Below, in pieces: positions 203 to 34,884 of a stretch of 36,305 bases of DNA (positions are counted from its first letter, which is position 1; each line of letters begins with the position of its first letter). The DNA is from Patescibacteria group bacterium (GTDB lineage Bacteria > Patescibacteriota > Minisyncoccia > Phycocordibacterales > UBA918), in the NCBI GenBank assembly GCA_040384905.1, contig JAZKIJ010000029.1, positions 12,495 through 48,799 of the forward strand, given 5' to 3'. The position numbers and the translations under genes are program-made. A model generated the notes under the pieces. The model saw only the letters and a program-made list of their open reading frames with translations, made no database searches and was not told the DNA's origin.

Positions 203-895
203 ATGAGTACGGCAAAATTAATTGTGATTGACGGCGGAGCGAACGTGGGGAAAGCGACCCAGGCGGACATGTTAATGAATCGATTAATTGCAGAAGGGTA
301 CCAAGTCGGAAAAATTGATTTTCCACGGTACAGTCAAAACTCCATTGGGCACTTTATTCGAGAATGTTTAGATGGAGAAGAAGATAAGTTTGCTGAGCTT
401 GATCCGCGGATTGTGGCGATGGTCTATGCGATTGATCGATTTGAATCAAAAAAACAAATTGAAGAATGGATGGAAGAAGGACGCATCATTATTTTTGACC
501 GGTACGTGAGTTCCAACATGATGCACCAGGGTGCAAAAGTGCATGATGCCGATGCTCGTGAAGAATTCTTTTCGTGGGTGGAACATTTGGAATATGATAT
601 TTTAGGATTGCCACGACCTGATATGACGATTTATTTGGATATTCCACCACAGGATAGTCAAAAGTTACTAGAGTACATTGAAGACATTGGTGTGACTGTG
701 GTTGATCCGAAAGAAAAAGATAAACTCCACCAGGCAAAGGTTTCCAAGTGTGCGAGTTATTTAGCAAATACGCACAACCAATGGGTAACGGTGCCCTGTG
801 TGACTGATGGGGCCTTACGTCTCCGGGAAGAAATTCACGAAGAAGTGTACACTGCGGTAAAGGCCAATATTCCAGCGCCTCACGCAACGGTATAA
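203..895 (+). CDS. tmk: thymidylate (dTMP) kinase
   Basis: 230-aa ORF with P-loop IVIDGGANVGKAT, a DRY-type motif (FDRYVSSNMMHQ) and typical length. It sits next to dut, consistent with a nucleotide-metabolism context. Confidence 0.8.
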   Translation: MSTAKLIVIDGGANVGKATQADMLMNRLIAEGYQVGKIDFPRYSQNSIGHFIRECLDGEEDKFAELDPRIVAMVYAIDRFESKKQIEEWMEEGRIIIFDRYVSSNMMHQGAKVHDADAREEFFSWVEHLEYDILGLPRPDMTIYLDIPPQDSQKLLEYIEDIGVTVVDPKEKDKLHQAKVSKCASYLANTHNQWVTVPCVTDGALRLREEIHEEVYTAVKANIPAPHATV

Positions 896-922
896 CTGAA
901 TTAAGGAGTAAAAGATGGAGAA

Positions 923-957
923 CAAAATTGCCCGGGTTTGAACCCGGGCAATTTTTT
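923..957 (+). terminator. intrinsic terminator after tmk
   Basis: AAAATTGCCCGGG-tttgaa-CCCGGGCAATTTT perfect stem followed by a T-run. Confidence 0.8.
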
Positions 958-1048
958 GATGGGGTGATATACTGTACTAAATATTTTTTGCCTATGATTT
1001 AAGCTCCCGTACAATTTCTGAAGATTATATAAATTTTAAGTTTTAACT

Positions 1049-2317
1049 ATGCAAAATTACGATTTCATTAAAGCGCAGGATCCAGAATTGTACGCGACGT
1101 TGATTGGGGAAGAGGCTCGTGAAGCCCGGGGTATCGAATTAATTCCTAGTGAGAACTATGTTTCGCGGGCGGTCTTGGAAGCTAATGGTTCAGTATTCAC
1201 GAATAAATATTCCGAAGGGTATCCTGGCAAGCGGTACTACGGTGGGCAACAGTACACCGACATGATGGAGAGTATCACGATTGAACGCGCAAAAAAGTTA
1301 TTTAAAGCAAACTATGCAAACGTGCAGCCGTTAGGAGGAGCGGCCGCCAACGTGGCGATGTACTTTGCATTGATGGAACCAGGAGACACCGTATTAGGCA
1401 TGGACCTGAGTCACGGTGGACACCTTACCCACGGTCACCCAACGACAGCAATTAACAAAGTATTTAACTTTGTCCGCTACAAAATGAAGGATGTTGATAC
1501 GGGAGAAATTGATTACGAAGCTCTTAGGCAAACGGCCCTTGAACACAAGCCAAAAATTATCTTAGCTGGATTCTCAGCGTATTGTCGTGAGCTTGATTAT
1601 CAAAAATTTGTTGATATTGCTAAGGAAGTAGGGGCGTATGCGGTAGCCGACGTAGCGCATATTACAGGACTGATTGCTGGTGGGGTGGCAAAAAACCCGT
1701 TTGAATATGGTTTTGATGTGATGACCATGACCACCCACAAGTCCCTTCGTGGTCCACGAGGGGGAATGATTGTGGTGCGCGAGAGTGAAGAGATTGCAAA
1801 GAAAATTAACAAAGCAGTATTCCCTGGCATGCAAGGCGGGCCACACATGCACATTATTGCGGCCAAAGGTGTAGCTTTTGGTGAGGCACTCACTCCACAG
1901 TTTAAAGTGTACGCAGCCCAAATTCTAAAAAATGCGAAAGCGATGGAAGCGGTCTTTAAAGCGCACAACGTACGATTGCTTTGTGGAGGAACTGATAACC
2001 ACATGTTACTGGCGGACGTGTTTGGCAGTCTTGGTATAACCGGACAAGAAGCGGAGACAGTTTTGGATAAGGTTGGGATTACGCTTAACAAAAACATGAT
2101 TGCGGATGAAACTCGTACTGCTATGGATCCCTCAGGAATTCGCTTCGGCACGCCAGCCATGACCACACGTGGCATGAAGGAAGGGGAAGCCACCAAGCTC
2201 GCTGAAATTATGATCACCACCATGAAAGCTAAAGATGATTTGGTGAAGATTAATGAGTTGCAAAATGAGGTGCAGGCTTTGTGCGAGGCACACCCAGTCC
2301 CCGAGAAGTTCGTCTAG
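1049..2317 (+). CDS. glyA: serine hydroxymethyltransferase
   Basis: 422-aa ORF with LIPSENYVSRAVLEA, YSEGYPGKRYYGG and the PLP-lysine block TTTHKSLRGPRGG. Confidence 0.95.
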   Translation: MQNYDFIKAQDPELYATLIGEEAREARGIELIPSENYVSRAVLEANGSVFTNKYSEGYPGKRYYGGQQYTDMMESITIERAKKLFKANYANVQPLGGAAANVAMYFALMEPGDTVLGMDLSHGGHLTHGHPTTAINKVFNFVRYKMKDVDTGEIDYEALRQTALEHKPKIILAGFSAYCRELDYQKFVDIAKEVGAYAVADVAHITGLIAGGVAKNPFEYGFDVMTMTTHKSLRGPRGGMIVVRESEEIAKKINKAVFPGMQGGPHMHIIAAKGVAFGEALTPQFKVYAAQILKNAKAMEAVFKAHNVRLLCGGTDNHMLLADVFGSLGITGQEAETVLDKVGITLNKNMIADETRTAMDPSGIRFGTPAMTTRGMKEGEATKLAEIMITTMKAKDDLVKINELQNEVQALCEAHPVPEKFV

Positions 2318-2341
2318 TGTGGGCCAAAAATAGCACATTCC

Positions 2342-2413
2342 GTTGTTGCACTGCATAAAATAAAATTCACCGTATAAAAATACGGCTCATCTTATTTTAT
2401 TTGCGCGCCTAGG
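2342..2413 (+). repeat. bipartite hairpin element, copy A (long form with GTTGCAC / TGCGCGCC clamp)
   Basis: GTTGTTGCAC-AT-rich stem-TTCAC CGTAT aaaa ATACG GCTCA-return stem-TGCGCGCCTAGG. It starts 24 nt after the glyA stop. The core matches five other copies in this window. Confidence 0.6.
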
Positions 2414-2538
2414 ACTGTATCTATTTTAGACACATACTCGAGTTCTCGAGCATTATTGTGGTTGGAACTGCATCAATTTTAAAACGAATTTTTAGTTCAA
2501 ATAATAGATTTATAGTATTAGTCCCAATACGTATGTTT

Positions 2539-2566
2539 AAAAAACAGCCAAAAATGGCTGTTTTTT
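2539..2566. terminator. bidirectional-looking intrinsic terminator
   Basis: AAAAAACAGCCA-aaaa-TGGCTGTTTTTT, with an A-run before the stem and a T-run after it. Confidence 0.7.
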
Positions 2567-2594
2567 GTATAGTCAGCAGGAGGAGCAAAAAGGC

Positions 2595-2622
2595 TTGGCA
2601 ATTTGGGAAAAGATGCTATAAT
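2595..2622 (+). promoter_or_regulatory. sigma-70-type promoter with extended -10
   Basis: TTGGCA (2595-2600), 16-nt spacer, TGcTATAAT (2614-2622). Confidence 0.55.
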
Positions 2623-2628
2623 GTTTGT

Positions 2629-2716
2629 GAAGGCTAGGACGGAACCCCTATGCCCTCGCTTCACTGTCCCTCGTTCCACAACTTAGCGCCCCAACTTCGG
2701 TTGGGGCGTTTTTTTT
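2629..2716 (+). ncRNA. candidate ~90-nt small RNA or riboswitch-like leader (family unknown)
   Basis: The unit begins just after the promoter above. It ends in a CGCCCCAAC-TTCG-GTTGGGGCG stem plus T8 (2687-2716). Internal pairings include GTGAAG/CTTCAC and GGCTAGG/CCTAtGCC. There is no ORF. The next gene starts 31 nt after the T-run. Confidence 0.4.
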
Positions 2717-2747
2717 ATTTTAGATTATTTTCCCGGCAGCGTACCTG

Positions 2748-3842
2748 ATGAGTTATACTTACTGTATGACCTTTCGGGAAATGTTTCAGCAGGTAAAACA
2801 TCACTGGCTTACCGTGGCTTTTATTTTAGGATTCATCACTGATTATCTGTTACTCAATCGGATTGATGATACGTTTGATAATGCACTCCTGTTTTTTTAT
2901 GTGGTGTTAGCCTCGATTTCGATTGTATTATTGTACGGAAGTATTGCTCAAAAATTTGGCGAACGACCCTCGGCCTTTTTTCGAAAAGTAGCTCCGATGT
3001 TAATGCAGTATTCCTTCGGAGGATTATTCTCGGGGATGCTCATTTTTTATAGTCGCAGTGGAGCGCTCTGGGCATCGTGGCCGTTTTTACTTTTATTTAT
3101 TGCCGCTATTTATGGGAACGAGACGATGCGTAATCGTGGACAGCAATTGGTGTTTAACATCTTGTCTTATTTTGTGGGGTTGTTCTCGTACCTCGTGATG
3201 GTGGTGCCGGTGTTTCTCGGACGGATGGGCCCGGAAATATTTGTCGCTAGTGGATTGCTCGCACTCGTTATTGTGTATGCGCTAGTACAGCTTCTGACAA
3301 AAATTATTCCGAATTATATGTCGATGCAAACCAAGACCATTGTCTATATGGTGTTTGGATTATTCGTGGGGTTAAATACGTTGTACTTTACGAATGTGAT
3401 TCCACCGATCCCGCTCTCACTACAAGAAATACATATTGTGCACGAAGTCACACGATTAAACGATTCAACCTACGAGCTTACCTATGAGCCGGTAGAATGG
3501 TATCGCTATGATAAAAAAATGAGTATGGTATTTCATCCATCCGAATCAGGCACGGTGGCTTGTTTTACGAGAGTGTTTGCACCCGCAAAAATTGATACCG
3601 AGGTTTTCCATGTCTGGGAGTATCGTGACGCTGAAGGAAACTGGGTAGAGCATTATCGAAAATCATATGCCGTAACGGGGAAGGCAGTAAACGGCTACCG
3701 AGGTTGGACAGCACTTTCCTCAGCGCGCAATGGTGTATGGCGATGTAGTGTCGAGACTGCGCGCGGACAAGTATTGGGTCAAAAAGAATTTACCATCGAT
3801 ACGTCGATACCGCCGAGTACCTTAGAGAAAAAAGTTGATTAA
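2748..3842 (+). CDS. polytopic membrane protein with a C-terminal beta-rich soluble domain (possibly DUF2914-like)
   Basis: 364-aa ORF. The first ~215 aa contain multiple hydrophobic helices. The C-terminal ~130 aa are Trp/Tyr-rich and soluble (…GNWVEHYRKSY…GVWRCSVETARGQVLGQKEFTI). The start codon is uncertain, with several in-frame ATGs at 2748-2790. Confidence 0.6.
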   Translation: MSYTYCMTFREMFQQVKHHWLTVAFILGFITDYLLLNRIDDTFDNALLFFYVVLASISIVLLYGSIAQKFGERPSAFFRKVAPMLMQYSFGGLFSGMLIFYSRSGALWASWPFLLLFIAAIYGNETMRNRGQQLVFNILSYFVGLFSYLVMVVPVFLGRMGPEIFVASGLLALVIVYALVQLLTKIIPNYMSMQTKTIVYMVFGLFVGLNTLYFTNVIPPIPLSLQEIHIVHEVTRLNDSTYELTYEPVEWYRYDKKMSMVFHPSESGTVACFTRVFAPAKIDTEVFHVWEYRDAEGNWVEHYRKSYAVTGKAVNGYRGWTALSSARNGVWRCSVETARGQVLGQKEFTIDTSIPPSTLEKKVD

Positions 3843-3871
3843 TTAGAATTTTTGCTATAGTCTCAATATCT

Positions 3872-5557
3872 ATGGACTCTGTCATCCGAGCCGCCGTTGC
3901 TGAAGCGTTAGAAACTCTCGGTTTGCCCGAGGCAGATTTTTCTATTGAACACCCACATGAATTTAATCATGGGGATTTTGCTTGTAATGTAGCTATGGTT
4001 GTCAGTAAAGAAGTGGGACAGGCGCCACGAGTAATAGCCGAACAAATTGTTACGGAACTGTCTAATCAAATTGAATATATAGATCGGATTGAAATTGCGG
4101 GTCCCGGATTTATAAATTTCTTTTTAAGTCGAGATTTTTTTGTTGCCGAAACCAACCGCATTATTAGTGCGGGAGAGAGTTGGGGACGAAACGATTCATG
4201 GGAAGGTAAAAAAGTAATTGTTGAATATACAGACGCTAACCCGTTTAAAGAATTTCATATCGGACACTTATTTACCAACGCGGTCGGGGAAAGTATTGCG
4301 CGTTTATTTATGATGGCCGGAGCAGATGTTAAGCGTGTATGTTACCAGGGGGATGTTGGGTTACACGTTGCGCATGCCATCTGGGGGATGCAAAAAAGCG
4401 GACTCACTGCTACCAGTGCTTTTACTGCCAAAGATCTAGGCAAAGCCTATGCAGTTGGAGCTACCGCCTACAAAAATGACGAGACCGCTAAAGCAGAAAT
4501 TATTGCCTTAAATAAAATAATCTACGAACGTAGTGATGATTCCGTCACGGCACTGTATGATGCGGGACGCACGGTGTCACTTGAGTACTTTGAATCAATA
4601 TACAAACTCGTAGACACGCAATTCTCAGAATACTTTTTTGAAAGCGAAGCAGCGGGTGAAGGAAAGGCAATTGTCCTGGCTCACCCGGAAGTGTTTCCTC
4701 AAAGTGACGGGGCGTACATATTTGAAGGTGAAAAATACGGATTGCACACTCGGGTATTTTTAAACAATCAGGGACTTCCAACGTACGAAGCCAAAGAACT
4801 AGCACTTGCAAAACTAAAAGAAGAGCGTCTTGGTGCGTATGACCACTCAGTAATCTCAACCGCGAAAGAAATTAATGAATATTTTAAAGTGCTCAAAACC
4901 GCTATGGGTTTTGTGTATCCTGAGTTGGCCGCCAAAACCGAACATATCGGTCACGGGATGGTGCGGTTGGCTACCGGTAAAATGTCGTCACGTACGGGAG
5001 ATGTTATTTCGGCGCTTGATTTTATTGAAGATGTCGCACACTCTGCTAAAGAAAAAATGGTCGCCTCGGGCGTGGTAACCCCAAGTGGGGACTTGGCGCA
5101 TGATATTGCTATAGCCGCGATTAAGTACGCGACGTTGCGGGGCAATATTTTACAGGATTCAATTTTTGATAAAGAGCGAGCGCTTAGTTTTGAAGGAGAT
5201 TCCGGTCCGTACTTACAATACACACACGCTCGAATTTGTAGTGTCCTTGATCGAGCTCGCTTAGCGGGAATTGAGCCGTCACGTAAACAGGTGCCCGATG
5301 ATACGTACCTGGTAGAAAAAACTTTGTACCGGTTTGAGGAAATAGTCATGCAGGCACTTGATGAACGAGCACCGCATAAAGTAGTGGGGTATTTAACTGA
5401 ACTAGCGGCTGCCTTTAATACGTTTTACGCCCACGAAAAAATTGCTGACCCCAGTGATACCTACGCCGCCTACAAATGTCAGGTAGCCCAAGCAGTGGCG
5501 GTTACCCTTAAAAACGGACTTTTTATTTTGGCGATTAAAGCACCCAATCGTTTGTAA
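3872..5557 (+). CDS. argS: arginyl-tRNA synthetase
   Basis: 561-aa ORF. It has the N-terminal Arg_tRNA_synt_N-like IEIAGPGFINFFL, the HIGH-type motif NPFKEFHIGHL, the MSSRTG (KMSK-equivalent) motif and a DALR-like C-terminus. Confidence 0.9.
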   Translation: MDSVIRAAVAEALETLGLPEADFSIEHPHEFNHGDFACNVAMVVSKEVGQAPRVIAEQIVTELSNQIEYIDRIEIAGPGFINFFLSRDFFVAETNRIISAGESWGRNDSWEGKKVIVEYTDANPFKEFHIGHLFTNAVGESIARLFMMAGADVKRVCYQGDVGLHVAHAIWGMQKSGLTATSAFTAKDLGKAYAVGATAYKNDETAKAEIIALNKIIYERSDDSVTALYDAGRTVSLEYFESIYKLVDTQFSEYFFESEAAGEGKAIVLAHPEVFPQSDGAYIFEGEKYGLHTRVFLNNQGLPTYEAKELALAKLKEERLGAYDHSVISTAKEINEYFKVLKTAMGFVYPELAAKTEHIGHGMVRLATGKMSSRTGDVISALDFIEDVAHSAKEKMVASGVVTPSGDLAHDIAIAAIKYATLRGNILQDSIFDKERALSFEGDSGPYLQYTHARICSVLDRARLAGIEPSRKQVPDDTYLVEKTLYRFEEIVMQALDERAPHKVVGYLTELAAAFNTFYAHEKIADPSDTYAAYKCQVAQAVAVTLKNGLFILAIKAPNRL

Positions 5558-5661
5558 CGAGATACCTAGGCAAGCTCCAATTTCGTGATACTATAAAAAA
5601 GCTGGTCTGATACATCAGTTTTATTAGTATGTCTGATACACATACGTAACCTAGTATTTAT

Positions 5662-8600
5662 ATGAATAAACAACATGGTCGGGAAAATGACTCAGTAGCC
5701 GTTGTGCCTGAGACCGAAAAAAGTGACGTAGCAACTCGTGAAGAATTGATACAAGCATTTTGGCTTGAGCACGATATTTTTAATAAAAGTCTGGCTACGC
5801 CAGCAGGGGATACGGCCAAAGGAAGCTATACTTTTTATGATGGTCCGCCGTTTGCAACGGGAACTCCTCACTACGGACATATTTTAGCTAGTACCATCAA
5901 AGATGCAGTGCCCCGATTTTGGACCATGAATGGTATGCAGGTAGACCGAAAGTGGGGCTGGGATTGTCATGGACTACCACTAGAGAATTTAATTGAAAAG
6001 AAACTCGGACTGGCTACCAAACGGGATATTGAAGAGTACGGTGTTAAGAATTTTAACGAAGCGGCTCGTGGTGCGGTGATGGAATATGCTGACTACTGGA
6101 AAATGGCCATTCCGCGCATGGGACGGTGGGCCGACATGGAGGACGATTACAAAACCATGGACAGTACCTACACGGAGAGTGTATGGTGGGTTTTTTCTGA
6201 ACTCCATAAAAAAGGATTAGTGTTTGAAGGCTTTAAAACCATGCATCTCTGTCCACGCTGTGGGACTACCCTAAGTAACTTTGAAGTGAATCAAGGCTAC
6301 AAAGATATTAAAGATATTGCGGTTACGGTAAAGTTGCCGTTACTTGATGAAGCGGGCATGGTGACTAATACGTCACTGTTGGTCTGGACAACGACTCCGT
6401 GGACGTTGCCGGGGAATATGGCGGCGGCTGTTCACAGTGATATTGAGTATGTAAAAGTAAAAGTAACCACAGAAACCGGAGCAGAGTTTTTTATTCTCGC
6501 TAAAGAGCGCTTGTCACAATTGGGAGATGTATCCTATACGATAGAGGAAGAAATAAAAGGATCGACATTGGTCGGACGTTCCTATCAGTCACCGTTTAGT
6601 TTTTTACAAAACCAAGATTTTGACAAAACCAATGCCTGGAAAATTTGGCACGCGGACTATGTCGAAGTAGGGACTGAAGGCACAGGGGCAGTGCATATCG
6701 CGCCAGCGTATGGAGATGATGATATGCAGTTGGCCAAAGCCAACAACGTTCCTATCATGCACCACGTTGATACAGCTGGGCACTTTATGCCGTTGGTAAC
6801 AGAATTTGCCGGACGGTTGGTAAAACCAAAAGATGACGATGCTTCGGGGATTGATCACAAAGATACTGATATTGAAATATTAAAGTCTTTGCAAACCGCC
6901 GGCAAAATTTTCAAAAAAGAAAACATCACTCACAGCTACCCGCACTGTTGGCGCTGTGATACACCGTTACTTAACTACGCGACCACCTCGTGGTTTGTGA
7001 ATGTGCCGGCAATTAAAGATGCGCTTGTGGCTAATAATGCTCAAGTACACTGGGTGCCAGAGCATGTGGGCACTAATCGTTTTGGAAAGTGGCTGGAAGG
7101 AGCGAGAGATTGGGCGGTGTCGCGACAGCGGTATTGGGGAGCACCCTTGCCAATTTGGAAAAATCCTAAAACTGGTGAGTACAAAGTTTTTGGTTCACTC
7201 GCTGAGTTGCAGCAGTATATTCCGCAAACCGGCAACACCTTCTATGTGATGCGTCATGCGCAAGCGCACAGTAATCTGGGCGATGCCGTAATTGATGCGA
7301 TTCCGGATGAAGAAAATCCGTTAACTGATACCGGTCGCGAGCAATGTAAAGTGGCCGCCGAGCAATTAAAAGACGCAGGCATTACTCGCATTGTGCACTC
7401 AGGGATGCAGCGCACGCGTGAGACGGCGCTCGCTGTGGCAGCCTTGCTTGGGTTACCAGAATCAGCGGTGACGGTAGATACTCGCATTACCGAATTACAA
7501 ACTGGTAACGCCTTTGAAGGAAAAACCTGGGCAGAGTACAACGCCAACTACGCGAGTGAAGAAGAAAAGTTCACCAAAGTAATTCCCGGGGTAGAAAACC
7601 GCTACGACCTTATTAAACGGGCGGGAGCATTCTTGTATGACTTTAATGCGAGTCATCAAAATGAAACTGTCTTAGTAGTGGCGCACGCCAGTTCAACGTT
7701 TGCGTTGCGGTGCGTCGCGCAAGGCGCAGATCATACCCGTGTCATTGAACTTAAAAAGGAAGGGTACTTTGGTAATGCGGAAGTCCGTCCGTTACCGTTT
7801 ACCCCCGTACCGCATAATGATAATTACGCACTTGATTACCACCGGCCATACATTGATGAGATTGAACTGGTTGATACTGATGGTACTAAGCTTGTGCGCG
7901 TGCCCGATGTATTTGACTGCTGGTTTGAGAGTGGATCAATGCCGTATGCGCAGCATCATTTCCTTGGGGAAGGACGAGCTGACTTTGAAGGAACAAAATT
8001 CCCGGCGCAGTTTATTGCTGAAGGTCTTGATCAAACGCGCGGGTGGTTCTATTCACTGATTGTGTTAGGCACAGCTTTATTTGGTAAATCACCGTTTGAG
8101 AATGTGATTGTAAACGGGTTAGTGCTCGCCGAAGATGGAAAAAAGATGTCTAAATCTCTCAAGAACTATCCTGACCCGATGGAGTTAGTTGATCGTGTAG
8201 GAGCTGATGCTATCCGGTATTACATGCTCACCTCACCATTGATGAAAGGGGAAGATTTAAACTTCTCAGAAAAAGAAGCGCTTGAGTTACAGCGAAAAAA
8301 TATCGGCCGGTTGCATAACGTGCTCGCTATGTACGAGATGTTTGCCGATGGTACTAAAGCTAATCCAAGCTCCGACAACATACTTGATCGTTGGATTGTT
8401 ACCCGACTTAATCAAATCATTTCTGAAGCCACTGCCGGATACAAATCCTATGAACTTGATAAAGCCAACCGACCAATTGCTGATTATATTGATGATGTAT
8501 CGGTTTGGTATCTACGCAGAAGTCGAGAACGCTTAAAGGCCGATGATGAAGCTGACAAAGCTTTGGCTATTGGAACACTTCGTTATATCTTGCGTGAACT

Positions 8601-9225
8601 TGCAAAAGTCATGGCTCCCGCTATGCCGTTTTATGCCGAGTATTTATATCGTGCAGTTAAAGATGAGGGAGAAGCGGAAAGTGTACACCTAACTGCGTGG
8701 CCACAAGGTGGGGAAGTAAGTCTCGATCTTATTGAGAAAATGAAAGAGGTGCGTATGTTTGTGACGGCTGGTCTTGAAGCCCGCACTAAAGCCAATATCA
8801 AAGTTCGCCAACCATTGTCTGAGTTGTTTATTCGAACAGACATGCTGCCTGATACAGAGTTGCTTAATCTCATCAAAGATGAACTCAATGTTAAACAAGT
8901 AAGTTTGGATGGGGTAGAGAGTGGGGCTGAGGCCACCTCAAAAATCACCCTCATTACCGAGCTAACTCCAGAACTCATTGCCGAAGGTGCTGTGCGTGAA
9001 GTAATGCGGGCGGTCCAAGATATGCGCAAAGATGCAGGCCTTGAACCCGGTGACCGTATTGCTCTTATAATTGCAACAGATGAAACGGGGCAAGCTGCGG
9101 TTGAGTGTCATAAAGAACTTTTGCAACACACTGTCGGTGCGAGCACCGTTGAATATGGTGTAGCGTTTGGTACCACGGTAACTGCAGGTGAACATACGTT
9201 TACACTTTCGTTTGAAAAAATATAA
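5662..9225 (+). CDS. ileS: isoleucyl-tRNA synthetase (type 2) with an internal histidine-phosphatase-like domain
   Basis: 1187-aa ORF with GPPFATGTPHYGH, the editing block TTTPWTLPGN, WAVSRQRYWGAPLPIW, DQTRGWFYS and KMSKS. An extra ~190 aa (nt ~7240-7800) carry RHA..N, RTRETA, E and VVAHASS motifs. Confidence 0.9.
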   Translation: MNKQHGRENDSVAVVPETEKSDVATREELIQAFWLEHDIFNKSLATPAGDTAKGSYTFYDGPPFATGTPHYGHILASTIKDAVPRFWTMNGMQVDRKWGWDCHGLPLENLIEKKLGLATKRDIEEYGVKNFNEAARGAVMEYADYWKMAIPRMGRWADMEDDYKTMDSTYTESVWWVFSELHKKGLVFEGFKTMHLCPRCGTTLSNFEVNQGYKDIKDIAVTVKLPLLDEAGMVTNTSLLVWTTTPWTLPGNMAAAVHSDIEYVKVKVTTETGAEFFILAKERLSQLGDVSYTIEEEIKGSTLVGRSYQSPFSFLQNQDFDKTNAWKIWHADYVEVGTEGTGAVHIAPAYGDDDMQLAKANNVPIMHHVDTAGHFMPLVTEFAGRLVKPKDDDASGIDHKDTDIEILKSLQTAGKIFKKENITHSYPHCWRCDTPLLNYATTSWFVNVPAIKDALVANNAQVHWVPEHVGTNRFGKWLEGARDWAVSRQRYWGAPLPIWKNPKTGEYKVFGSLAELQQYIPQTGNTFYVMRHAQAHSNLGDAVIDAIPDEENPLTDTGREQCKVAAEQLKDAGITRIVHSGMQRTRETALAVAALLGLPESAVTVDTRITELQTGNAFEGKTWAEYNANYASEEEKFTKVIPGVENRYDLIKRAGAFLYDFNASHQNETVLVVAHASSTFALRCVAQGADHTRVIELKKEGYFGNAEVRPLPFTPVPHNDNYALDYHRPYIDEIELVDTDGTKLVRVPDVFDCWFESGSMPYAQHHFLGEGRADFEGTKFPAQFIAEGLDQTRGWFYSLIVLGTALFGKSPFENVIVNGLVLAEDGKKMSKSLKNYPDPMELVDRVGADAIRYYMLTSPLMKGEDLNFSEKEALELQRKNIGRLHNVLAMYEMFADGTKANPSSDNILDRWIVTRLNQIISEATAGYKSYELDKANRPIADYIDDVSVWYLRRSRERLKADDEADKALAIGTLRYILRELAKVMAPAMPFYAEYLYRAVKDEGEAESVHLTAWPQGGEVSLDLIEKMKEVRMFVTAGLEARTKANIKVRQPLSELFIRTDMLPDTELLNLIKDELNVKQVSLDGVESGAEATSKITLITELTPELIAEGAVREVMRAVQDMRKDAGLEPGDRIALIIATDETGQAAVECHKELLQHTVGASTVEYGVAFGTTVTAGEHTFTLSFEKI

Positions 9226-9809
9226 TGTCGTATCAGACGTATATAACAGAAGGTTTAATCTGCGGAAGTTTTGACTCCAATACTGCTGATAAATCGTACC
9301 TCCTGTTTACCAAATCGGCGGGGATGATTTATGCGTCGGCGCGCAGTGTGCGCGAGGAGAGGAGTCGTCAACGGTTTGCCTTGCAAGATTTTGGAATAGT
9401 GACCGTGTCACTTATTAAAGGGAAGACGGGGTGGCGGATTGGGAGTGTGCAATCGGAAGGAAACTTGTTTGCGAGCGCACCGAATCGATTGGTGCGGGGA
9501 AGTGTCGTGCGAATGTTTAAATTTCTGCGACGTTTTGCCGGTGCCGAAGAACCAGAGCCAGTCATCTACGATGAATTTTGCCTGGGGCTTTCGTATCTCA
9601 CAAAACCTGATGTAGAAAATCGAACCCTGATTGAGGAGGTGTTACAAGCCCGGATGTTGTACCACTTGGGGTATATTGCCGATACCGAGGATATTAACTT
9701 TATCTTTGAACAACCACTTCCAGTGGTAATTACGTCGGAGTTGTTGCTTCCATTGCTTCCACGATTAAAAACAATCACCGGCAATGCAACTACGGCCAGT
9801 CATTTATAA
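9225..9809 (+). CDS. recO: DNA repair protein RecO-like (short form)
   Basis: 194-aa ORF. The N-terminal OB-fold pattern (YLLFTKSAGMIYASARSVREERSRQRFALQDFGIVTVSLIKGKTGWRI) resembles RecO. Its start overlaps the ileS stop (TAATG). Confidence 0.55.
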   Translation: MSYQTYITEGLICGSFDSNTADKSYLLFTKSAGMIYASARSVREERSRQRFALQDFGIVTVSLIKGKTGWRIGSVQSEGNLFASAPNRLVRGSVVRMFKFLRRFAGAEEPEPVIYDEFCLGLSYLTKPDVENRTLIEEVLQARMLYHLGYIADTEDINFIFEQPLPVVITSELLLPLLPRLKTITGNATTASHL

Positions 9810-9826
9810 AGATAAGTGATATACTG

Positions 9827-11800
9827 GTGGATATTAGTATTATGTCACCGCTTAAAGATCAAGCTCAAATTGATGAAATTCGACGTCGTTTATACGAACG
9901 TGGAGCGCAACCGGGGGTCACACCCAGGCATAATTTATCAAAGGTAGCTGAAACTCCCCAAACGCGGTGGCCGGGACAAAAACCGTTACCGCAACCCGAA
10001 ATCTATCCTGCTGATCAACGCGGAGAAGTTCTTGATGAGCCAACTGTTGACGTGCATGAAGTTAAGGTACCCAAAAAGAGATTTAGGTTTACCTTTAGAA
10101 CGATAATGCTTATCTTGGCGCTTGGTACTTTTTTAGCGGCGATTTTATTTTCAAGTTTCTACATGCTGTTTGGAAACAATCAAATTTCCAACAAAAATAT
10201 TAGTATCAACATTAACGCCCCCTTAACTATTGGGGGAGGGGAAGTAATGGATATTCAGATATCGGTCACCAACCAAAATAAAGTCCCCATTGAATCTGCG
10301 GTGTTGATTGTGAATTATCCAGTCGGATCCAAATCAACGGATTTGCCCGCCAAAGATCTCTATGAAGAACGTATTACCCTCAACCGGATAGAGGCTGGTG
10401 AAGCAATTAATATTCCCCTCAAGGCCGTCATGTTTGGCGAAGAAAACCAAGAGCGACAAATTAAAGCCACCATTGAATATCGTTTGGTTGATTCAAACGG
10501 AACTTTCTACAAAGAGAGTGATCCGTTAACTTTTAAAATCAGTTCTTCGCCGGTAGTGATTCGCGTTGAATCAATTAAAAAAGTATCAGCGGGACAGGAT
10601 ATTGAAGTAAAATTGACCATTCAATCAAACGCGTCGACGCCATTAAAAGACGTACTTGTCACCGCCAATTATCCAACCAATTTTGATTTTAGCAGTGCAG
10701 AACCGACTCCTGTTTTTCGAGAGAGCGCTTGGTTGATTAAAGAATTACTCCCCGAAACCTCCACTACCATTGTGATTAAAGGGGGAATTCTTGGTAAGCA
10801 AACGGAAGAATTTCAAATTCAGTTCTCAGCCGGAACCGCCCAGCAAGATAATCAATTTATGATTGGATCGGTTCTAGCAAATGCCATCGCTGACTTTGTG
10901 ATTGAACAACCGTTTATTGATGTGGGGATTGGCGTTAATAATTTAACGACTGAAGTAGTGACACTACCAACCGGCCAAGACACGCAGGTTGAAGTATCAG
11001 TTCAAAACACATTGGATCAGACCCTCTACGATATGGCAGTTGAAGTGGCGGTTAAAGGAAATATTTTGGTACGGGAAAATGTGCAGGTAAACAAAGGGTT
11101 CTATGACTCGGTGAAAGATGTGATACGTTTTGACCCCTCAGGAGATAAAACGTTAGGGGCAGTCGCTCCAGGAGCCACAAAAAAATTCATCTTCACTCTA
11201 AGGCCCGGTGATCAAAAATCAACCCCATCATACACCCTGACTGCAAATGCGTACGCTCGGCGTGTAAACGAAACGAGTGCCACTGAACAATTAGTGGGTA
11301 CCGCCAAAACAGAAGTTAAATTTACTTCCTCGGTAGCGATAACCCGAACCATTGGCCGTAGCGTGCCTGGGTTTACTGATGTGGGACCAATTCCACCCGC
11401 ACCTGATATCAAAACTTCGTATACTGTTACATTGACGACCAGTGCCGGAGGGAATGATGTGACCGGTGGAGTGCTTACTACTTCTTTGCCCCAGTACGTC
11501 AGTTGGGAGAACCTCAGTAGTGGGGACGGCACGCTGGCTTTTAACCCGATATCAAAAGAACTAACCTGGACGGTAGGGGAAATTAAAGCCGGAGCCAAGA
11601 AAACCACCACTTTCCAAATCGCCCTCTTGCCAAGTCAGAACCAAATTGGTACAACTCCTGCAGTCCTCGGTACGCAACGATTTAGAGCGACTGACCGATT
11701 TACCAACCAGGTAATACGTGCCGAAGGGCCGCCCGCGAGTTCAGAATTAGGTATTGAATCTGGTTTTGAACAGAATAACGGTGAGGTGACTCGACCCTAA
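9827..11800 (+). CDS. single-pass membrane-anchored protein with a large repetitive beta-rich ectodomain, function unknown
   Basis: 657-aa ORF with a GTG at 9827 and a likelier ATG at 9842 (MSPLKDQ...). One TM helix (IMLILALGTFLAAILFSSFYMLF) is followed by ~550 aa rich in T/V/N/Q, with recurring 'xVxVxVxN' beta-sandwich-like segments. Confidence 0.6.
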   Translation: MDISIMSPLKDQAQIDEIRRRLYERGAQPGVTPRHNLSKVAETPQTRWPGQKPLPQPEIYPADQRGEVLDEPTVDVHEVKVPKKRFRFTFRTIMLILALGTFLAAILFSSFYMLFGNNQISNKNISININAPLTIGGGEVMDIQISVTNQNKVPIESAVLIVNYPVGSKSTDLPAKDLYEERITLNRIEAGEAINIPLKAVMFGEENQERQIKATIEYRLVDSNGTFYKESDPLTFKISSSPVVIRVESIKKVSAGQDIEVKLTIQSNASTPLKDVLVTANYPTNFDFSSAEPTPVFRESAWLIKELLPETSTTIVIKGGILGKQTEEFQIQFSAGTAQQDNQFMIGSVLANAIADFVIEQPFIDVGIGVNNLTTEVVTLPTGQDTQVEVSVQNTLDQTLYDMAVEVAVKGNILVRENVQVNKGFYDSVKDVIRFDPSGDKTLGAVAPGATKKFIFTLRPGDQKSTPSYTLTANAYARRVNETSATEQLVGTAKTEVKFTSSVAITRTIGRSVPGFTDVGPIPPAPDIKTSYTVTLTTSAGGNDVTGGVLTTSLPQYVSWENLSSGDGTLAFNPISKELTWTVGEIKAGAKKTTTFQIALLPSQNQIGTTPAVLGTQRFRATDRFTNQVIRAEGPPASSELGIESGFEQNNGEVTRP

Positions 11801-11829
11801 TACTTAACTTACAAACATTAAATTACGTT

Positions 11830-13218
11830 ATGACAAACCCCGACAGTACGACAAATAAAATGGAAAAAATTACCGCCCTGTGTAAGCGTCGGGGGTTTGT
11901 GTTTCAAGGTTCGGATATTTATGGGGGACTGCGGGGTACCTGGGATTTAGGTCCGCTTGGGGTTGCTCTTAATAACAACATCAAACGTGAGTGGTGGAAG
12001 ATGTTTGTAGATGGACGAGAAGATATGTATGGACTCGATGCGTCAATATTAATGAACGCCAAAGTCTGGGAGGCCAGTGGTCACACTGGCGCTGGTTTTG
12101 CTGATCCGATGCTTGAGGATACCGTGACAGGTGAACGCTTCCGAGCTGACCATTTTCTAAAAGATAACGGGTACGATGCGGAAGGGATGTCACTCGAAGC
12201 CATTGATGCGCTAATAACAGAAAAGGGAATTAAAAGTCCCAAAGGTAATCCACTGTCAAAAACCCGAACGTTTAACATGATGTTTGAAACTCGGATTGGC
12301 GCTACTGCCGGACCGGAAGGTTTGGTGTACTTGAGACCGGAAACAGCACAAGGAATTTTTGTGAACTTTAAAAATGTAGTTGACTCAATGGCGCCAAAGA
12401 TGCCATTTGGAATTGGACAGATAGGGAAGGCGTTTCGAAATGAAATTGCTCCCCGTGAATTTTTGTTCCGCGTGCGAGAGTTTGAGCAGATGGAAATTGA
12501 ATACTTCGTAAAAGAGGAAGAGTGGAAAGAACAATTTGAAAACTGGCGCTTGGCTATTTGGAATTGGTTTGACCATCTTGGACTTACGAGAGAAAACGTC
12601 CAGGAGCTTGAGGTAGCCGAAGGAGACCTCGCTCACTACAGTAAACGCACCATCGATTTTGAGTACAATTTTCCTGGTAAAGGCTTTGATGAGTTGGCTG
12701 GTTTTGCGTACCGAACCGACCATGACTTACAAGCGCACATGAACGCGAGCGGGGTTTCTATGGAATATATTGAATCAGACGGGACGCGCTTTGTGCCGCA
12801 CGTGCTTGAACCAAGTTTTGGGGTGGGTCGAGCAATAACCGCAGTATTATGTGAAGCGTATACGGAAGACGCAATGGGCGAGGATGGCCGAACGTTTCTT
12901 AAATTGCCAAAACACCTCGCGCCGTATGTAGCCTGTGTCTCACCGTTACTTCGTAACAAACCAGAGTTGGTAGAAAAAGCTCGGGGAGTGTTTTCTATCC
13001 TTAAAAAAGAGTTTGGAAATGTTACCTGGGATGACAATGGGAATGTCGGAAAACGTTACCGACGCCAAGATGAAATTGGTACCCCATACTGTATCGTGAT
13101 TGATTTTGACACCCTCGGAGAAAATCCAGAATTACTTGATACGGTCACCGTCCGTAATCGTGATACGGGGGAGCAGGAACGAATGGCTATTACGGAACTT
13201 GTAAACTACTTAAAATAA
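11830..13218 (+). CDS. glyQS: glycyl-tRNA synthetase (alpha2 homodimeric type)
   Basis: Motifs: ITALCKRRGFVFQGSDIYGGLRGTWDLGPLG, FRNEIAPREFLFRVREFEQMEIEYF and EPSFGVGR. The alternative start at 11860 (MEKIT...) is plausible. Confidence 0.9.
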   Translation: MTNPDSTTNKMEKITALCKRRGFVFQGSDIYGGLRGTWDLGPLGVALNNNIKREWWKMFVDGREDMYGLDASILMNAKVWEASGHTGAGFADPMLEDTVTGERFRADHFLKDNGYDAEGMSLEAIDALITEKGIKSPKGNPLSKTRTFNMMFETRIGATAGPEGLVYLRPETAQGIFVNFKNVVDSMAPKMPFGIGQIGKAFRNEIAPREFLFRVREFEQMEIEYFVKEEEWKEQFENWRLAIWNWFDHLGLTRENVQELEVAEGDLAHYSKRTIDFEYNFPGKGFDELAGFAYRTDHDLQAHMNASGVSMEYIESDGTRFVPHVLEPSFGVGRAITAVLCEAYTEDAMGEDGRTFLKLPKHLAPYVACVSPLLRNKPELVEKARGVFSILKKEFGNVTWDDNGNVGKRYRRQDEIGTPYCIVIDFDTLGENPELLDTVTVRNRDTGEQERMAITELVNYLK

Positions 13219-13254
13219 GTATAGTCTAATTTATAGATAGAAAGGAGGTGTGGC

Positions 13255-13680
13255 ATGCAGTTGCTACTGGGCAAGGTCAATCAAGAATCTAAAAAATTGA
13301 TATTCATGGCGCACATTCCTATAAGTGCACAACTCCATGATATCAAAACGGCAATTGAAAAAGTCCGATTTCTAAAAATCGCCGCTGAACGTTCCGGGTA
13401 CATCGCATACTCCACTGATGTGGCCACGTTGTTTGAATCTCGCTTGCATGTGAGTCTGGAGCTACAACAAAAACGCGAGCGGGAGTGCCATTTACTATCA
13501 ATGGGGACGTACGATGCTATCCAATATTCCGGAAGCGGTCTTTCCAGTGATCATTTGCAAGATATTGCTCGAGCGGCCTATTTTGGAGAAACGCCAGTCT
13601 ACTTAGATATACCAAAAGAGTCTTTGCTGGCTCAGTACATTATTAGGTTTAAATTTAATAAAGTGCAAAGGGATATATAA
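13255..13680 (+). CDS. hypothetical protein
   Basis: 141-aa ORF preceded by a strong SD (AAGGAGGTGTGGC-ATG) and followed by a terminator. No motif recognised. Confidence 0.6.
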   Translation: MQLLLGKVNQESKKLIFMAHIPISAQLHDIKTAIEKVRFLKIAAERSGYIAYSTDVATLFESRLHVSLELQQKRERECHLLSMGTYDAIQYSGSGLSSDHLQDIARAAYFGETPVYLDIPKESLLAQYIIRFKFNKVQRDI

Positions 13681-13714
13681 AGCAGCTGATTCAAAAGAAT
13701 CGGCTGCTTTTTTA
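13681..13714 (+). terminator. intrinsic terminator
   Basis: AGCAGCTGATTC-aaaa-GAATCGGCTGCT followed by TTTTTT. Confidence 0.8.
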
Positions 13715-13744
13715 TTTCCCACGCTGTGGTACAGTATTTTAACT

Positions 13745-15187
13745 ATGTCAGACAAAAAACCTCGCTATATCACCACCACCTTGCCGTATGTAAACGCTGA
13801 ACCGCATATTGGGTTTGGGTATGAACTGGTGGTTGCCGACACACTGGCGCGCCACTGGCGCTTACAGGGGCACGAAGTATTCTTTACCACCGGTACCGAC
13901 GAACACGGCCAAAAAATTGCTGAAAAAGCAGATAGTGAGGGCATCTCTAGACAACAGTATGTTGATACCTATGCTGCCAAGTTTGCGGAGCTAAAGGGGG
14001 CGCTCAATATTTCGAATGATAACTTTATCCGGACTACTGATGCAACGCATAAAGCCGCCGCCCAAGCTATCTGGAACAAATGTTTAGCTAAAGGTGACAT
14101 CTATAAAAAAACGTACAAAGGTCTCTACTGTGTCGGGGATGAGATGTTTCTTCGCGATAGTGATTTAGTGAATGGACGGTGTCCCAATCACCCGAATGTA
14201 GACCCGGTTGAAATTGAAGAAGAAAATTACTTCTTTAAACTTTCAGAGTATCAAACTAAACTGACCGAATATTTATCCGACCCCACCCGGACTCTGTCTG
14301 AATCGTACCGCACCTGGGCATTGCAGTTTGTAACGGCTGGACTTGAGGATTTGAGTATTTCTCGTAGTAAAAAACGAATGGATTGGGGAATTGATGTACC
14401 GGGGGATGATGAACATGTTATGTACGTGTGGTTTGACGCGTTGACCAACTACATCAGTACGCTCGGCTGGCCTGAAGACGCAGCTGGTAATTTTAAAAAA
14501 TTCTGGGTAGAGGGTGAGACGGTGCAGTTAGCGGGAAAAGATCAGGTTCGATTCCAATCGATTATTTTCCAGGCGATGCTCATGTCGGCTGATGTGCCCA
14601 CCACCGATACCATTTGTTATCACGGTTTTATTAATAGTGGGGGGCAGAAAATGAGTAAGAGTCTCGGCAATGTTATTTCGCCGTATGAACTTGTTGCACG
14701 CTACGGCACTGACGCTACGCGGTATTTACTTTTGCGTCACGTGCATCCGTTTGATGATACTGATATTACCTGGGAACGCCTCGATGAATGGTATACCGCT
14801 GATTTGGTAAACGGGCTGGGGAACTTAGTGGCGCGTGTGATGAAGATGGCAGAAACACATTTAACAGAGCCGGTAATTGTGACTGCACCTCCTGAAACTA
14901 TTCTTGGATACACTGATACATTTGTTAACTACTCACTGCAACAGGGTAGTGAATACATTTGGAAACAAATCGGTACGCTTGATGAACGAATCACTGCGGA
15001 TGAGCCATTTAAGCTGGTTAAGGTTGACCCCGAAAAAGCTAAAACCATTATTCGGGAATTAGTAACAACGGTACACACAATTGGCCATTTGCTTGCGCCC
15101 TACATGCCCGCCACGAGCGAGATTATTCTGTCTGCTGTACGAGACAACAAAAAACCCGATAACTTATTTGCTCGACTCGAAGCGTAA
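13745..15187 (+). CDS. metG: methionyl-tRNA synthetase (short form)
   Basis: Motifs: TTTLPYVNAEPHIGFGYE (HIGH-type), TGTDEHGQKI, a single Cys knuckle (CVGDEMF...GRCPNH) and KMSKSLGN. Confidence 0.9.
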   Translation: MSDKKPRYITTTLPYVNAEPHIGFGYELVVADTLARHWRLQGHEVFFTTGTDEHGQKIAEKADSEGISRQQYVDTYAAKFAELKGALNISNDNFIRTTDATHKAAAQAIWNKCLAKGDIYKKTYKGLYCVGDEMFLRDSDLVNGRCPNHPNVDPVEIEEENYFFKLSEYQTKLTEYLSDPTRTLSESYRTWALQFVTAGLEDLSISRSKKRMDWGIDVPGDDEHVMYVWFDALTNYISTLGWPEDAAGNFKKFWVEGETVQLAGKDQVRFQSIIFQAMLMSADVPTTDTICYHGFINSGGQKMSKSLGNVISPYELVARYGTDATRYLLLRHVHPFDDTDITWERLDEWYTADLVNGLGNLVARVMKMAETHLTEPVIVTAPPETILGYTDTFVNYSLQQGSEYIWKQIGTLDERITADEPFKLVKVDPEKAKTIIRELVTTVHTIGHLLAPYMPATSEIILSAVRDNKKPDNLFARLEA

Positions 15188-15188
15188 T

Positions 15189-15794
15189 ATGGGAAAAACC
15201 CCAATCGTCTTTATTCATGGTGGAGACTCGTTTGATACCACCGAGGAATTTTATAATTTTCTTCGGAGCTGCACCTATAATCCGTATGCAACCGAACAAA
15301 ATAAATGGCGAGATGGCATTAAGGATAATTTAGTCGAGACTCATGAATGTATCATGCCTCGAATGCCAAACTCAATGAATGCCGACTATAGAGCGTGGGC
15401 TATTTGGTTTGAAAAAGTCATTCCTTTTTTACGTGACGGTGTAATTCTAGTGGGTCATTCATTAGGTGGAGGCTTTCTCTTGCGGTACTTAAGTGAAAAT
15501 AAATTACCTATAACAATTTCCCAACTGCATTTAATTGCCGGAGTGATTGATGATCTGGATTGTCCAGGGGTAGGGGAATTTGGCATTGATATTACTCAGT
15601 GGTCGGGGTTTATAGCTACCATAGAAGAAATCCATCTGTGGCATAGTTCAGATGATGAATATGTACCATTACATCACACCGAGCGTCTCGCGAGTAAATG
15701 CCCACAGGCAATCACTCATTACTTTACCGACAGAGGCCACTTTCTCCAGCCAGAATTTCCCGAGCTGATACAAATAATTTCTCCCAAAAAATAA
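15189..15794 (+). CDS. alpha/beta serine hydrolase (YdeN/RBBP9 Ser_hydrolase-like)
   Basis: The ATG at 15189 is in frame in ORF 15081..15794 and lies 1 nt after the metG stop. Motifs: IVFIHGG, nucleophile elbow GHSLGG, SSDDEYVP and DRGHF (a Ser-Asp-His arrangement). Confidence 0.7.
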   Translation: MGKTPIVFIHGGDSFDTTEEFYNFLRSCTYNPYATEQNKWRDGIKDNLVETHECIMPRMPNSMNADYRAWAIWFEKVIPFLRDGVILVGHSLGGGFLLRYLSENKLPITISQLHLIAGVIDDLDCPGVGEFGIDITQWSGFIATIEEIHLWHSSDDEYVPLHHTERLASKCPQAITHYFTDRGHFLQPEFPELIQIISPKK

Positions 15795-15810
15795 ACTCAA
15801 ACATAAACCC

Positions 15811-15842
15811 ATTTAACCTTCCATTCGAATGGAAGGTTAAAT
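15811..15842. repeat. 32-bp perfect palindrome, copy 1 of the AACCTTCCATTCGAATGGAAGGTT element
   Basis: ATTTAACCTTCCATTCGAATGGAAGGTTAAAT is its own reverse complement. It lies between the converging hydrolase and TrpR-like genes, and its last base is the first base of the TrpR-like stop codon. Confidence 0.9.
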
Positions 15843-16255: not shown

Positions 16256-16270
16256 TTAAAAAGAATATCA

Positions 16271-16294
16271 AACCTTCCATTCGAATGGAAGGTT
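16271..16294. promoter_or_regulatory. 24-bp perfect palindrome, copy 2; candidate operator in the divergent TrpR-like/tatD promoter region
   Basis: AACCTTCCATTCGAATGGAAGGTT is identical to the core of 15811-15842. It lies 15 nt from the TrpR-like ATG (16255) and 24 nt from the tatD ATG (16319). Confidence 0.6.
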
Positions 16295-16318
16295 ATACAT
16301 GTGGTATTATTCTCCAAT

Positions 16319-34779: not shown

Positions 34780-34884
34780 CCTATCCCGACAGAAAGTTTT
34801 AAATAATAGGTAGAAGTCAACCAAACTATGATTTTTGAAATAGTGTGGTATAGTTCTGCGGGTTCAGATAGGAAAGGACGACTA

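Follow-up and report, generated by a model that had tools for sequence, protein, structure and literature searches.

The window analysed here is a stretch of 36,305 nucleotides from the genome of a Patescibacteria group bacterium (GenBank assembly GCA_040384905.1, contig JAZKIJ010000029.1, positions 12,495 to 48,799 of the forward strand). It carries ileS, the gene for isoleucyl-tRNA synthetase (IleRS), and nested within the CP3 region of the encoded protein lies a histidine-phosphatase domain [Table 1]. The open reading frame (ORF) is free of stops and frameshifts, and its product scores 859.7 bits with the NCBIfam ileS equivalog model TIGR00392, for which the cutoff is 621.4. In the Pfam annotation the tRNA-synt_1 domain is divided into two stretches with His_Phos_1 between them. 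An earlier note on this DNA, made from the letters alone, had proposed that a complete domain resembling phosphoglycerate mutase is inserted in frame in a type-2 IleRS. The TIGR00392 score and the match to His_Phos_1 (PF00300, E = 2e-25) bear this out, and when the coordinates were re-derived, all the motif strings that it had quoted were recovered at the places given.

As a type-2 IleRS the host is complete: the HIGH, KMSKS and CP1 editing motifs as well as the anticodon-binding and C-terminal domains are intact. Conservation was assessed in a set of 70 sequences, composed of the window protein and 69 full-length orthologues from genomes. The HIGH signature is dimorphic in the fused enzymes: HxGH is found in 49 of the 70 (HYGH in the window protein), G/AxHH in 17 and HxGS in four. 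The G/AxHH variant is the swapped motif reported for mupirocin hyper-resistance of IleRS2, and the fused family resembles IleRS2 in that both HxGH and G/AxHH are present in each (PMC10485003). The models for the mupirocin-resistance enzymes MupA and MupB (NF000257/8) are not reached by the window protein (639 and 688 bits against 1900). In the CP1 editing domain, the columns W242 to T248 are invariant in the family alignment, and a further motif, GTGAVH at residues 340–345, is conserved as GTGxVH in the fused family. The HRPYID block with which CP3 resumes also comes after a short connector in an unfused orthologue (L087).

A model of the full IleRS was built with AlphaFold2 (AF2) from 39 family sequences. 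Its predicted local distance difference test score (pLDDT) is 89.4 and its predicted template modelling score (pTM) is 0.83; the model is confident over both junctions, and within the insert the pLDDT is ~79–96. Template modelling (TM) scores obtained with Foldseek, normalised to the length of the target, are 0.92 for Thermus thermophilus IleRS (1ile), 0.89 for 6ldk and 0.82 for Priestia megaterium IleRS2 (8c8v). Compared with these three enzymes and 8wnd (8wnd and 6ldk being yeast and Candida IleRS), the domain order, the HIGH and KMSKS signatures, CP1, the anticodon domain and DUF5915 are alike, at an identity of 30–32%.

The nested domain and its active site

In the solved or described IleRS, CP3 is small and its structure varies with the type of enzyme, with a zinc-binding beta-alpha-alpha-beta-beta arrangement in T. 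thermophilus, beta-beta-alpha-alpha in Candida and three helices in S. aureus (PMC7191050). The CP3 of the window protein, in contrast, is interrupted by a second catalytic domain of ~206 residues. The alignment of its upstream flank with the IleRS of yeast, human and Candida extends to chain residue ~490–497. In the alignment with the human and yeast cytoplasmic enzymes, chain residue 490 stands opposite query residue 518 and chain residue 498 opposite query residue 725; hence, ~206 residues stand where type-2 enzymes have ~7. The connector is 7–14 residues long in insert-less and canonical type-2 IleRS, and the insert spans 189–216 residues in 39 family members. In Candida albicans IleRS, CP2 comprises residues 427–461, CP3 473–534 and the second Rossmann half 535–649 (PMC7191050). 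Since query residue 518 falls at ~497 of 6ldk, the phosphatase is nested in CP3. This position lies between the WGxPxP block on one side and the HRPYID and DxWFxSG blocks on the other, as the earlier note had it. The domain is found where it was placed, at 7237–7830, and the insertion as a whole is slightly wider, extending from 7216 to 7833 (residues 519–724).

The statement in the earlier note that Thermus-type IleRS has only a short connector or a zinc segment here agrees with the zinc-binding CP3 described for it (PMC7191050). Moreover, a pair of CxxC...CxxC zinc knuckles brackets the insert in 20 of the 70 fused enzymes, as in the T. thermophilus CP3. The window protein lacks all four flanking cysteines (alignment columns at 7138–7215 and 7858–7910), as do most of its relatives.

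The insert scores 90–95 bits with PF00300, well above the gathering score of 21.7, and the region 7237–7830 scanned alone gives E = 5.4e-27. Modelled as a separate domain it adopts an alpha/beta fold with a pLDDT of 94.3 and a pTM of 0.91. Foldseek relates this domain model to GpgP (Rv2419c), PspA, HFP and PhoE at TM scores of 0.73–0.76 and identities of 22–27%, and the best PDB match by sequence is PspA (4ij5; E = 2.9e-7). CP3 thus carries a complete, independently folding branch-1 histidine phosphatase. With PhoE/YhfR (1h2e), GpgP (4pz9/4qih), PspA (4ij5), HFP (9mmh) and CobC it shares the fold, a length of ~190–210 residues and the R-H...N...R...E...H set of residues. These enzymes are free-standing, whereas the phosphatase in the window is nested in a synthetase.

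The insert belongs to the short phosphatase type of ~190 residues. It stays below the cutoffs of the dPGM and GpmB models (NF038349, 52.9 against 225; NF002901, 38.5 against 261; TIGR01258, 17.8 against 81.7) and also below those for CobC (TIGR03162, 64.3 against 162.9), PspA (NF045917, 44.9 against 350) and SixA (TIGR00249, 31.9 against 74.5), the SixA match being confined to the N-terminal 79 residues. An assignment of the substrate from the subfamily hidden Markov models was dropped, as every score is below its cutoff.

The catalytic residues of the insert pair one-to-one with those of the solved phosphatases 4ij5 and 9mmh, and the branch-1 core of R531, H532, R584, E611 and H675 is present [Table 1]. 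Two further residues, E645 and R653, are likewise found in all 70 sequences. The catalytic signatures, which the earlier note had judged intact, are conserved in 69–70 of the 70, in line with its view that the domain is not a decayed relic. Mean pairwise identity in the same set is 0.38 in the insert, as compared with 0.59 in the N-terminal Rossmann half, 0.48 in CP1 and 0.52 in the C-terminal Rossmann half. Near-invariant catalytic residues in a domain that drifts to 38% identity, together with intact IleRS motifs, point to purifying selection on two active sites. This pattern weighs against a relic and also against an inert scaffold.

An inert module might act as a scaffold, as a surface that binds tRNA or phosphate, or as a substitute for the CP3 zinc knuckle, all without turnover. 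Such a role would fit the lack of CxxC...CxxC in the window protein and its relatives (50 of 70), in which the domain might stabilise CP3, and also the replacement of the RHG glycine by alanine in the window protein and four of the 69 orthologues, five of 70 in total. However, pseudo-enzymes normally lose their catalytic residues, and here the nucleophile, the general acid and the other catalytic residues are invariant or nearly so despite the low identity of the domain. Moreover, RHA is also present in 9mmh, a solved phosphatase that is termed catalytic in its PDB title. We therefore consider an inert module very improbable; judging from its conserved residues, the domain is probably catalytically active. 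In the standard two-step branch-1 mechanism, His532 would attack the phosphomonoester, resulting in a phospho-histidine. Arg531, Arg584, His675 and Asn538 would hold the phosphate, and Glu611 would protonate the leaving group and then activate a water molecule.

Table 1. Features of the ileS locus and of its surroundings, with positions in the window
Feature	Positions	Strand	Basis or conservation
ileS, type-2 IleRS with nested phosphatase, 1187 aa	5662..9225	+	ORF, TIGR00392, AF2, Foldseek
HIGH signature HYGH, residues 70–73, aminoacylation site	5869..5880	+	motif re-derived
CP1 editing-domain threonine-rich motif WTTTPWT, residues 242–248	6385..6405	+	identical in 68/70 orthologues
CP3 N-terminal half, residues 493–518 (GAPLPIWKNPKTGEYKVFGSLAELQQ), upstream flank	7138..7215	+	aligns to yeast, human and Candida IleRS
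Inserted segment, residues 519–724: short variable N-linker, histidine phosphatase, conserved C-linker (...NAEVRPLPFTPVPHNDNYAL)	7216..7833	+	alignment
His_Phos_1 (PF00300) match, residues 528–694	7243..7743	+	Pfam E = 2e-25, 90 bits
Arg531-His532, RH(G/A) motif; His532 predicted phospho-accepting nucleophile	7252..7257	+	70/70; aligns with RH of 9mmh
Asn538, phosphate-pocket residue	7273..7275	+	70/70 genome orthologues; 32/39 in a more diverse representative set
Arg584, second phosphate-binding arginine (S..RT.ETA motif)	7411..7413	+	70/70; aligns with R of PspA 4ij5
Glu611, predicted general acid	7492..7494	+	69/70 Glu, 1 Asp; aligns with E of 'RIIEID' in 4ij5
His675, second catalytic histidine	7684..7686	+	70/70; aligns with H of 'VVSHTV' in 4ij5
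HRPYID, residues 727–732; CP3 and second Rossmann half resume	7840..7857	+	H727, P729, D732 invariant
KMSKS loop, residues 828–832	8143..8157	+	KMSK[SRKH] in 62/70 orthologues
Anticodon-binding domain (residues 909–1053) and IleRS-type C-terminal DUF5915 (1064–1186)	8386..9219	+	Pfam
argS, arginyl-tRNA synthetase, 561 aa, directly upstream of ileS	3872..5557	+	Pfam Arg_tRNA_synt_N, tRNA-synt_1d and DALR_1
RecO-like gene, start overlaps ileS stop	9225..9809	+	weak RecO_N match
Thymidylate kinase	203–895
SHMT	1049–2317
DUF2914 protein	2748–3842
DUF11/DUF2393 surface-type protein, 657 aa	9827–11800
Class II aminoacyl-tRNA synthetase with HGTP anticodon domain	11830–13218
Short MetRS, 480 aa	13745–15187
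TatD	16301–17176
tRNA-Pro(GGG), sole tRNA gene in the window	34719–34790

Distribution and origin of the fusion

A survey of related genomes was among the checks proposed in the earlier note, besides the profile search, the prediction of an independent fold and the type-2 IleRS alignment, whose results are given above. When one genome of each GTDB species was scanned, the same in-frame fusion was found in at least 237 species-level genomes, and the named records among the matches listed all belong to the Patescibacteria or Candidate Phyla Radiation (CPR). The fused lineages are mostly of the Paceibacteria type (Nomura-, Kaiser-, Adler-, Vogel- and Taylorbacteria) and include a complete chromosome, CP060229.1. 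Numerous third-party metagenome-assembled genomes (MAGs) with the fusion bear the label 'uncultured Candidatus Saccharibacteria'. An HMMER scan of 1.84 billion representatives gave 276 clusters (at the 50% identity level) with E<=1e-10; in the top 150 clusters, the full-length proteins have 1100–1275 residues and the match lies at residues ~460–780. Homologues of the junction region were also found on independent metagenome fragments, which have both PF00133 and PF00300 and keep both junctions. From the fused genomes, 80 loci were retrieved and, save for truncations at contig ends, each has a single continuous ORF of ~1110–1280 codons. The fusion is clade-wide in Patescibacteria, extends over hundreds of species and is ancient.

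The orthologue in CP060229.1 (L006:4396-7962; USN92677.1, MCA9355325.1) goes by the NCBI name 'class I tRNA ligase family protein', presumably because the insert breaks the naming rule. Under this generic name, the record shows neither that the protein is an IleRS nor that it contains a phosphatase.

If it were an artefact, the fusion could be a chimera of the assembly, a contig joined wrongly, a mobile insertion akin to an intein or a pseudogene, and the GC content of the insert, which is somewhat above that of the remaining gene (0.498 as against 0.453), might be read in this way. However, identical in-frame junctions recur in the 80 loci, which come from many independent studies and include CP060229.1. 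The presence of both junctions in one ORF across 80 independent loci excludes a chimeric assembly. Likewise, the uninterrupted ORF and the confident AF2 prediction at both junctions argue against an artefact, as does the nature of the insert, a conserved enzyme domain in which Pfam detects no intein or transposase features. An artefactual origin is thus effectively refuted. A recent horizontal acquisition is disfavoured, given that the shift in GC and in GC at third codon positions (GC3) is slight and the distribution clade-wide.

With respect to origin, a neighbour-joining (NJ) tree of phosphatase modules, which is rough and carries no support values, has stand-alone phosphatases of ~190 residues (P0134, P0144 and P0162) as the sister group of the IleRS inserts. 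With a profile made from these three, at least 1,736 relatives are found at E<=1e-15, and one of these is a named record from Ca. Nealsonbacteria. The genomic context of the stand-alone gene was inspected at seven loci (L083 and L085–L090), and in all seven it follows argS directly, with both genes on one strand. At six of them the two genes overlap at stop and start or are separated by 1–6 nucleotides, the gap at the seventh (L086) being 295 nucleotides. The next synthetase gene is an insert-less type-2 ileS in all five contigs that reach far enough. In L089 (GCA_026396195.1) and L090 (an 804-kb contig) the order is smpB on the opposite strand, followed, all in one direction, by argS, the phosphatase gene (185 aa), ileS (959 aa), a full recO and a gene for a large surface protein.

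In the window the order is argS, ileS with the phosphatase inside, the recO-like gene and the gene for a DUF11-type protein (9827–11800). The window is therefore collinear with L089 and L090, except that the phosphatase is within CP3 and not before ileS. Among the fused loci, argS is directly upstream on the same strand in 47 of the 62 with enough upstream sequence, and a RecO-like match is present in 57 of 80. In the fused clade no free phosphatase gene is found in the interval between argS and ileS; the domain sits within ileS, and none of the 80 retrieved fused loci has a second copy of the phosphatase. The collinearity and the sister relationship to the stand-alone family together suggest that an operon neighbour was internalised. 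This move of the phosphatase from the operon into CP3 appears to have taken place a single time, at an early stage of the clade.

The stand-alone argS-linked phosphatase, for example P0358 from Ca. Nealsonbacteria (GCA_026396195.1), which is named 'histidine phosphatase family protein', shares with the window domain the N-x(5)-RHG start and the neighbourhood of argS, ileS and recO. It differs in being a separate gene of ~185–195 residues next to an IleRS without insert, and its identity to the window domain is 27–31%. Four other candidates for free genes (P0102, P0109, P0129 and P0132) were set aside, as they cluster within the IleRS-insert clade and are probably gene fragments.

Some observations on the surroundings may be added. 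In CPR genomes the stand-alone family belongs to a cluster that comprises IF3-L35-L20, smpB and then argS, phosphatase, ileS and recO (e.g., L089:3404-9180). From 203 to 17176 the window itself is a dense cluster of synthetase and housekeeping genes [Table 1]. In one stand-alone context (L085:4340-4375, minus strand), the insert-less IleRS is broken by a single in-frame TGA at the conserved Trp430 (HSYPHC[TGA]RC), on a contig that has Ns; this TGA reflects a sequencing error or, alternatively, hints at decoding of UGA as Trp.

Phosphatases nested in valyl-tRNA synthetase and the candidate function

Histidine phosphatases are also nested in valyl-tRNA synthetase (ValRS). Four ValRS (P0165, P0166, P0169 and P0171) have one His_Phos_1 module at the site homologous to CP3 of IleRS, between WGHRIPVWY(CxxC) and DTLDTWFSSG. 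In P0170 the module occupies another loop, after DTWFSSGLWTF. P0068 has one module after QWF, and its CP3-type site holds a tandem of at least three more (Pfam, 417 bits in four stretches). In the NJ tree, the ValRS modules form three groups outside the clade of the IleRS inserts, and three of the modules differ by the motif subtype RHG[EQ]TDWN. This placement suggests separate captures. Most of the ValRS examples are fragments, and two stem from assemblies of low quality: P0068 (L081:366-3851) stops at an in-frame TAA on a contig of 2x coverage, and L084 (4369-8188) is part of an indel-rich MAG. Genetic code table 25 (UGA=Gly) was tried for the fragmented ValRS and rejected, since the terminator in P0068 is TAA and the pieces of L084, which lie in different frames, were not healed; the fragmentation is consequently taken to reflect assembly errors. 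Free-standing proteins of ~405–436 residues with two His_Phos_1 domains in tandem (P0172, P0173, P0184, P0196 and P0205) are kin of the ValRS-nested modules. The clade-wide fusion, its ancestry in a stand-alone gene and the separate acquisitions by ValRS go beyond what the earlier note had claimed.

These data lead us to propose, with a probability of roughly 0.7, that the window encodes a genuine and ancient bifunctional IleRS-phosphatase, in which the phosphatase would be active, derived from an operon neighbour and directed at a substrate tied to tRNA charging. We propose a connection of the substrate with charging because the family is found in an operon with ArgRS, nested in IleRS and separately nested in ValRS. 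It could belong to phosphorylated nucleotides, tRNA ends or the synthetase itself, rather than to general metabolism. The earlier note had speculated on a phosphorylated nucleotide, a tRNA-end species or an inhibitor as what the domain may hydrolyse. In addition, the junction between argS and the phosphatase gene is tight even where ileS is inverted (L085, L087 and L088).

Several points weigh against this proposal. The nearest solved structures, GpgP, PspA, HFP and PhoE, are small-molecule metabolic phosphatases at 22–27% identity, and as no NCBIfam subfamily model reaches its cutoff, specificity cannot be transferred from a known family. Phylogenetic inertia may be what keeps the gene order; as neighbours, recO and smpB are conserved to the same degree, and recO has no obvious functional link to ileS. 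The tree on which the ancestry leans is, as noted, a rough one. CP3 is a variable and permissive site (PMC7191050), and aminoacyl-tRNA synthetases (aaRSs) often host inserted domains (PMC13114784), so nesting need not mean functional coupling.

An alternative is that an active small-molecule phosphatase, unrelated to aminoacylation and acting, for instance, on phosphoserine, a sugar phosphate or a cofactor precursor, was trapped in a permissive loop as a neutral operon neighbour. In this scenario, it would have been kept in a streamlined genome only because the phosphatase is needed, with an essential and constitutively expressed protein as its host. The metabolic nature of the best matches (PspA 4ij5/4ij6, GpgP 4pz9/4qih, HFP 9mmh and PhoE 1h2e) would be expected, as would the variation of CP3 structure among IleRS (PMC7191050) and the company of the unrelated recO and smpB in the same conserved cluster. 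The shortness and low conservation of the N-linker suggest that the module is only loosely attached, and the SHMT gene near ileS in the window and in L002/L006 brings serine metabolism at least into the neighbourhood. On the other hand, distinct lineages of the domain have entered ValRS at two or three different sites, with up to four modules in a single protein, and one chance event at the locus can hardly explain this. Moreover, the stand-alone gene keeps its overlap or spacing of 1–6 nucleotides to argS despite a flipped ileS, and if co-expression alone mattered, a terminal fusion would be far easier to arrive at than a nested one. Hitch-hiking of this kind is possible, perhaps one chance in three, and on balance a translation-linked function seems somewhat more likely than pure hitch-hiking.

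A more specific form of the translation-linked proposal is that the phosphatase repairs tRNA ends or the synthetase. It would act in cis, for example by stripping an inhibitory phosphate from the synthetase and so restoring charging. HipA-type kinases are known to phosphorylate class I aaRSs. Among tRNA species, a phosphorylated 3′ end is a concrete candidate substrate. tRNA pyrophosphorylation at the 3′-CCA end by toxSAS-type toxins blocks aminoacylation and is an established toxin mechanism (10.1101/2021.04.30.441581; PMC11559606). Consistent with such a role, the family is tied only to class I synthetases, all of which handle the CCA end (ArgRS through the operon, IleRS and ValRS through nesting), and it is the catalytic Rossmann domain, not a terminus, that has received the insertions. 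However, we found no branch-1 histidine phosphatase that is known to work on RNA ends, the nearest structures are those of small-molecule enzymes, and no toxin or kinase gene was observed in the conserved neighbourhood in the window, L089 and L090. We thus regard repair in this sense as unlikely. The broader idea that the argS-linked, IleRS-nested and ValRS-nested phosphatases make up an unrecognised family of translation-protecting enzymes in CPR bacteria is similarly speculative. If it were true, nesting would put a repair activity where uncharged tRNA docks, and this would constitute a second kind of aaRS "proofreading", aimed at the chemical state of the tRNA end and not at the amino acid.

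Comparison with other multidomain synthetases and implications

aaRSs are among the best-studied enzymes. To our knowledge, no hydrolytic domain other than that for CP1 editing has been described as nested within the catalytic core of class Ia. The earlier note knew of no aaRS with an internal phosphatase, and we likewise found no description in the literature of a fusion between IleRS, ValRS or another aaRS and a histidine phosphatase or phosphoglycerate mutase, including for CPR, Parcubacteria and Patescibacteria. A 2026 survey of domain insertions names aaRSs as hosts and does not mention the pair of IleRS and phosphatase (PMC13114784). The architecture, distribution and origin of the fusion appear to be undescribed, although the sequences are public and generically annotated.

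Related arrangements are nevertheless known. The CP1 editing domain of class Ia aaRSs is likewise a second hydrolytic domain nested in the Rossmann fold (PMC13114784); unlike the phosphatase of the window, it is universal and acts on mischarged tRNA. An extra enzymatic domain in one IleRS polypeptide is also a feature of NF040702, 'isoleucine--tRNA ligase, N-acetyltransferase domain-containing', a model that the window IleRS does not match (301 against 1999 bits). In the bifunctional RNase H/acid phosphatase of the Rv2228c type (NF005567), a CobC-like His_Phos_1 is fused to a nucleic-acid enzyme, and this model is the second-best NCBIfam match of the phosphatase (60 bits, cutoff 326). That fusion is terminal and has another partner enzyme, whereas the one in the window is nested.

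With this finding, the class Ia core would gain a second catalytic domain, unrelated to the first and intact in its active-site residues. That such a fusion is fixed across a major CPR lineage and echoed by separate insertions in ValRS would be surprising to specialists. As the phosphatase is a gene of its own between argS and ileS in some genomes and a domain within ileS in others, the system offers a clean natural example of the birth of a nested multidomain protein. It would also give a handle on an uncharacterised and abundant CPR family, with at least 1,736 stand-alone relatives, in a translation gene cluster. If the substrate is the tRNA end or the synthetase, the nested phosphatase would reveal, in organisms of minimal genome size, a hitherto unseen level of quality control in translation or of defence against toxins.

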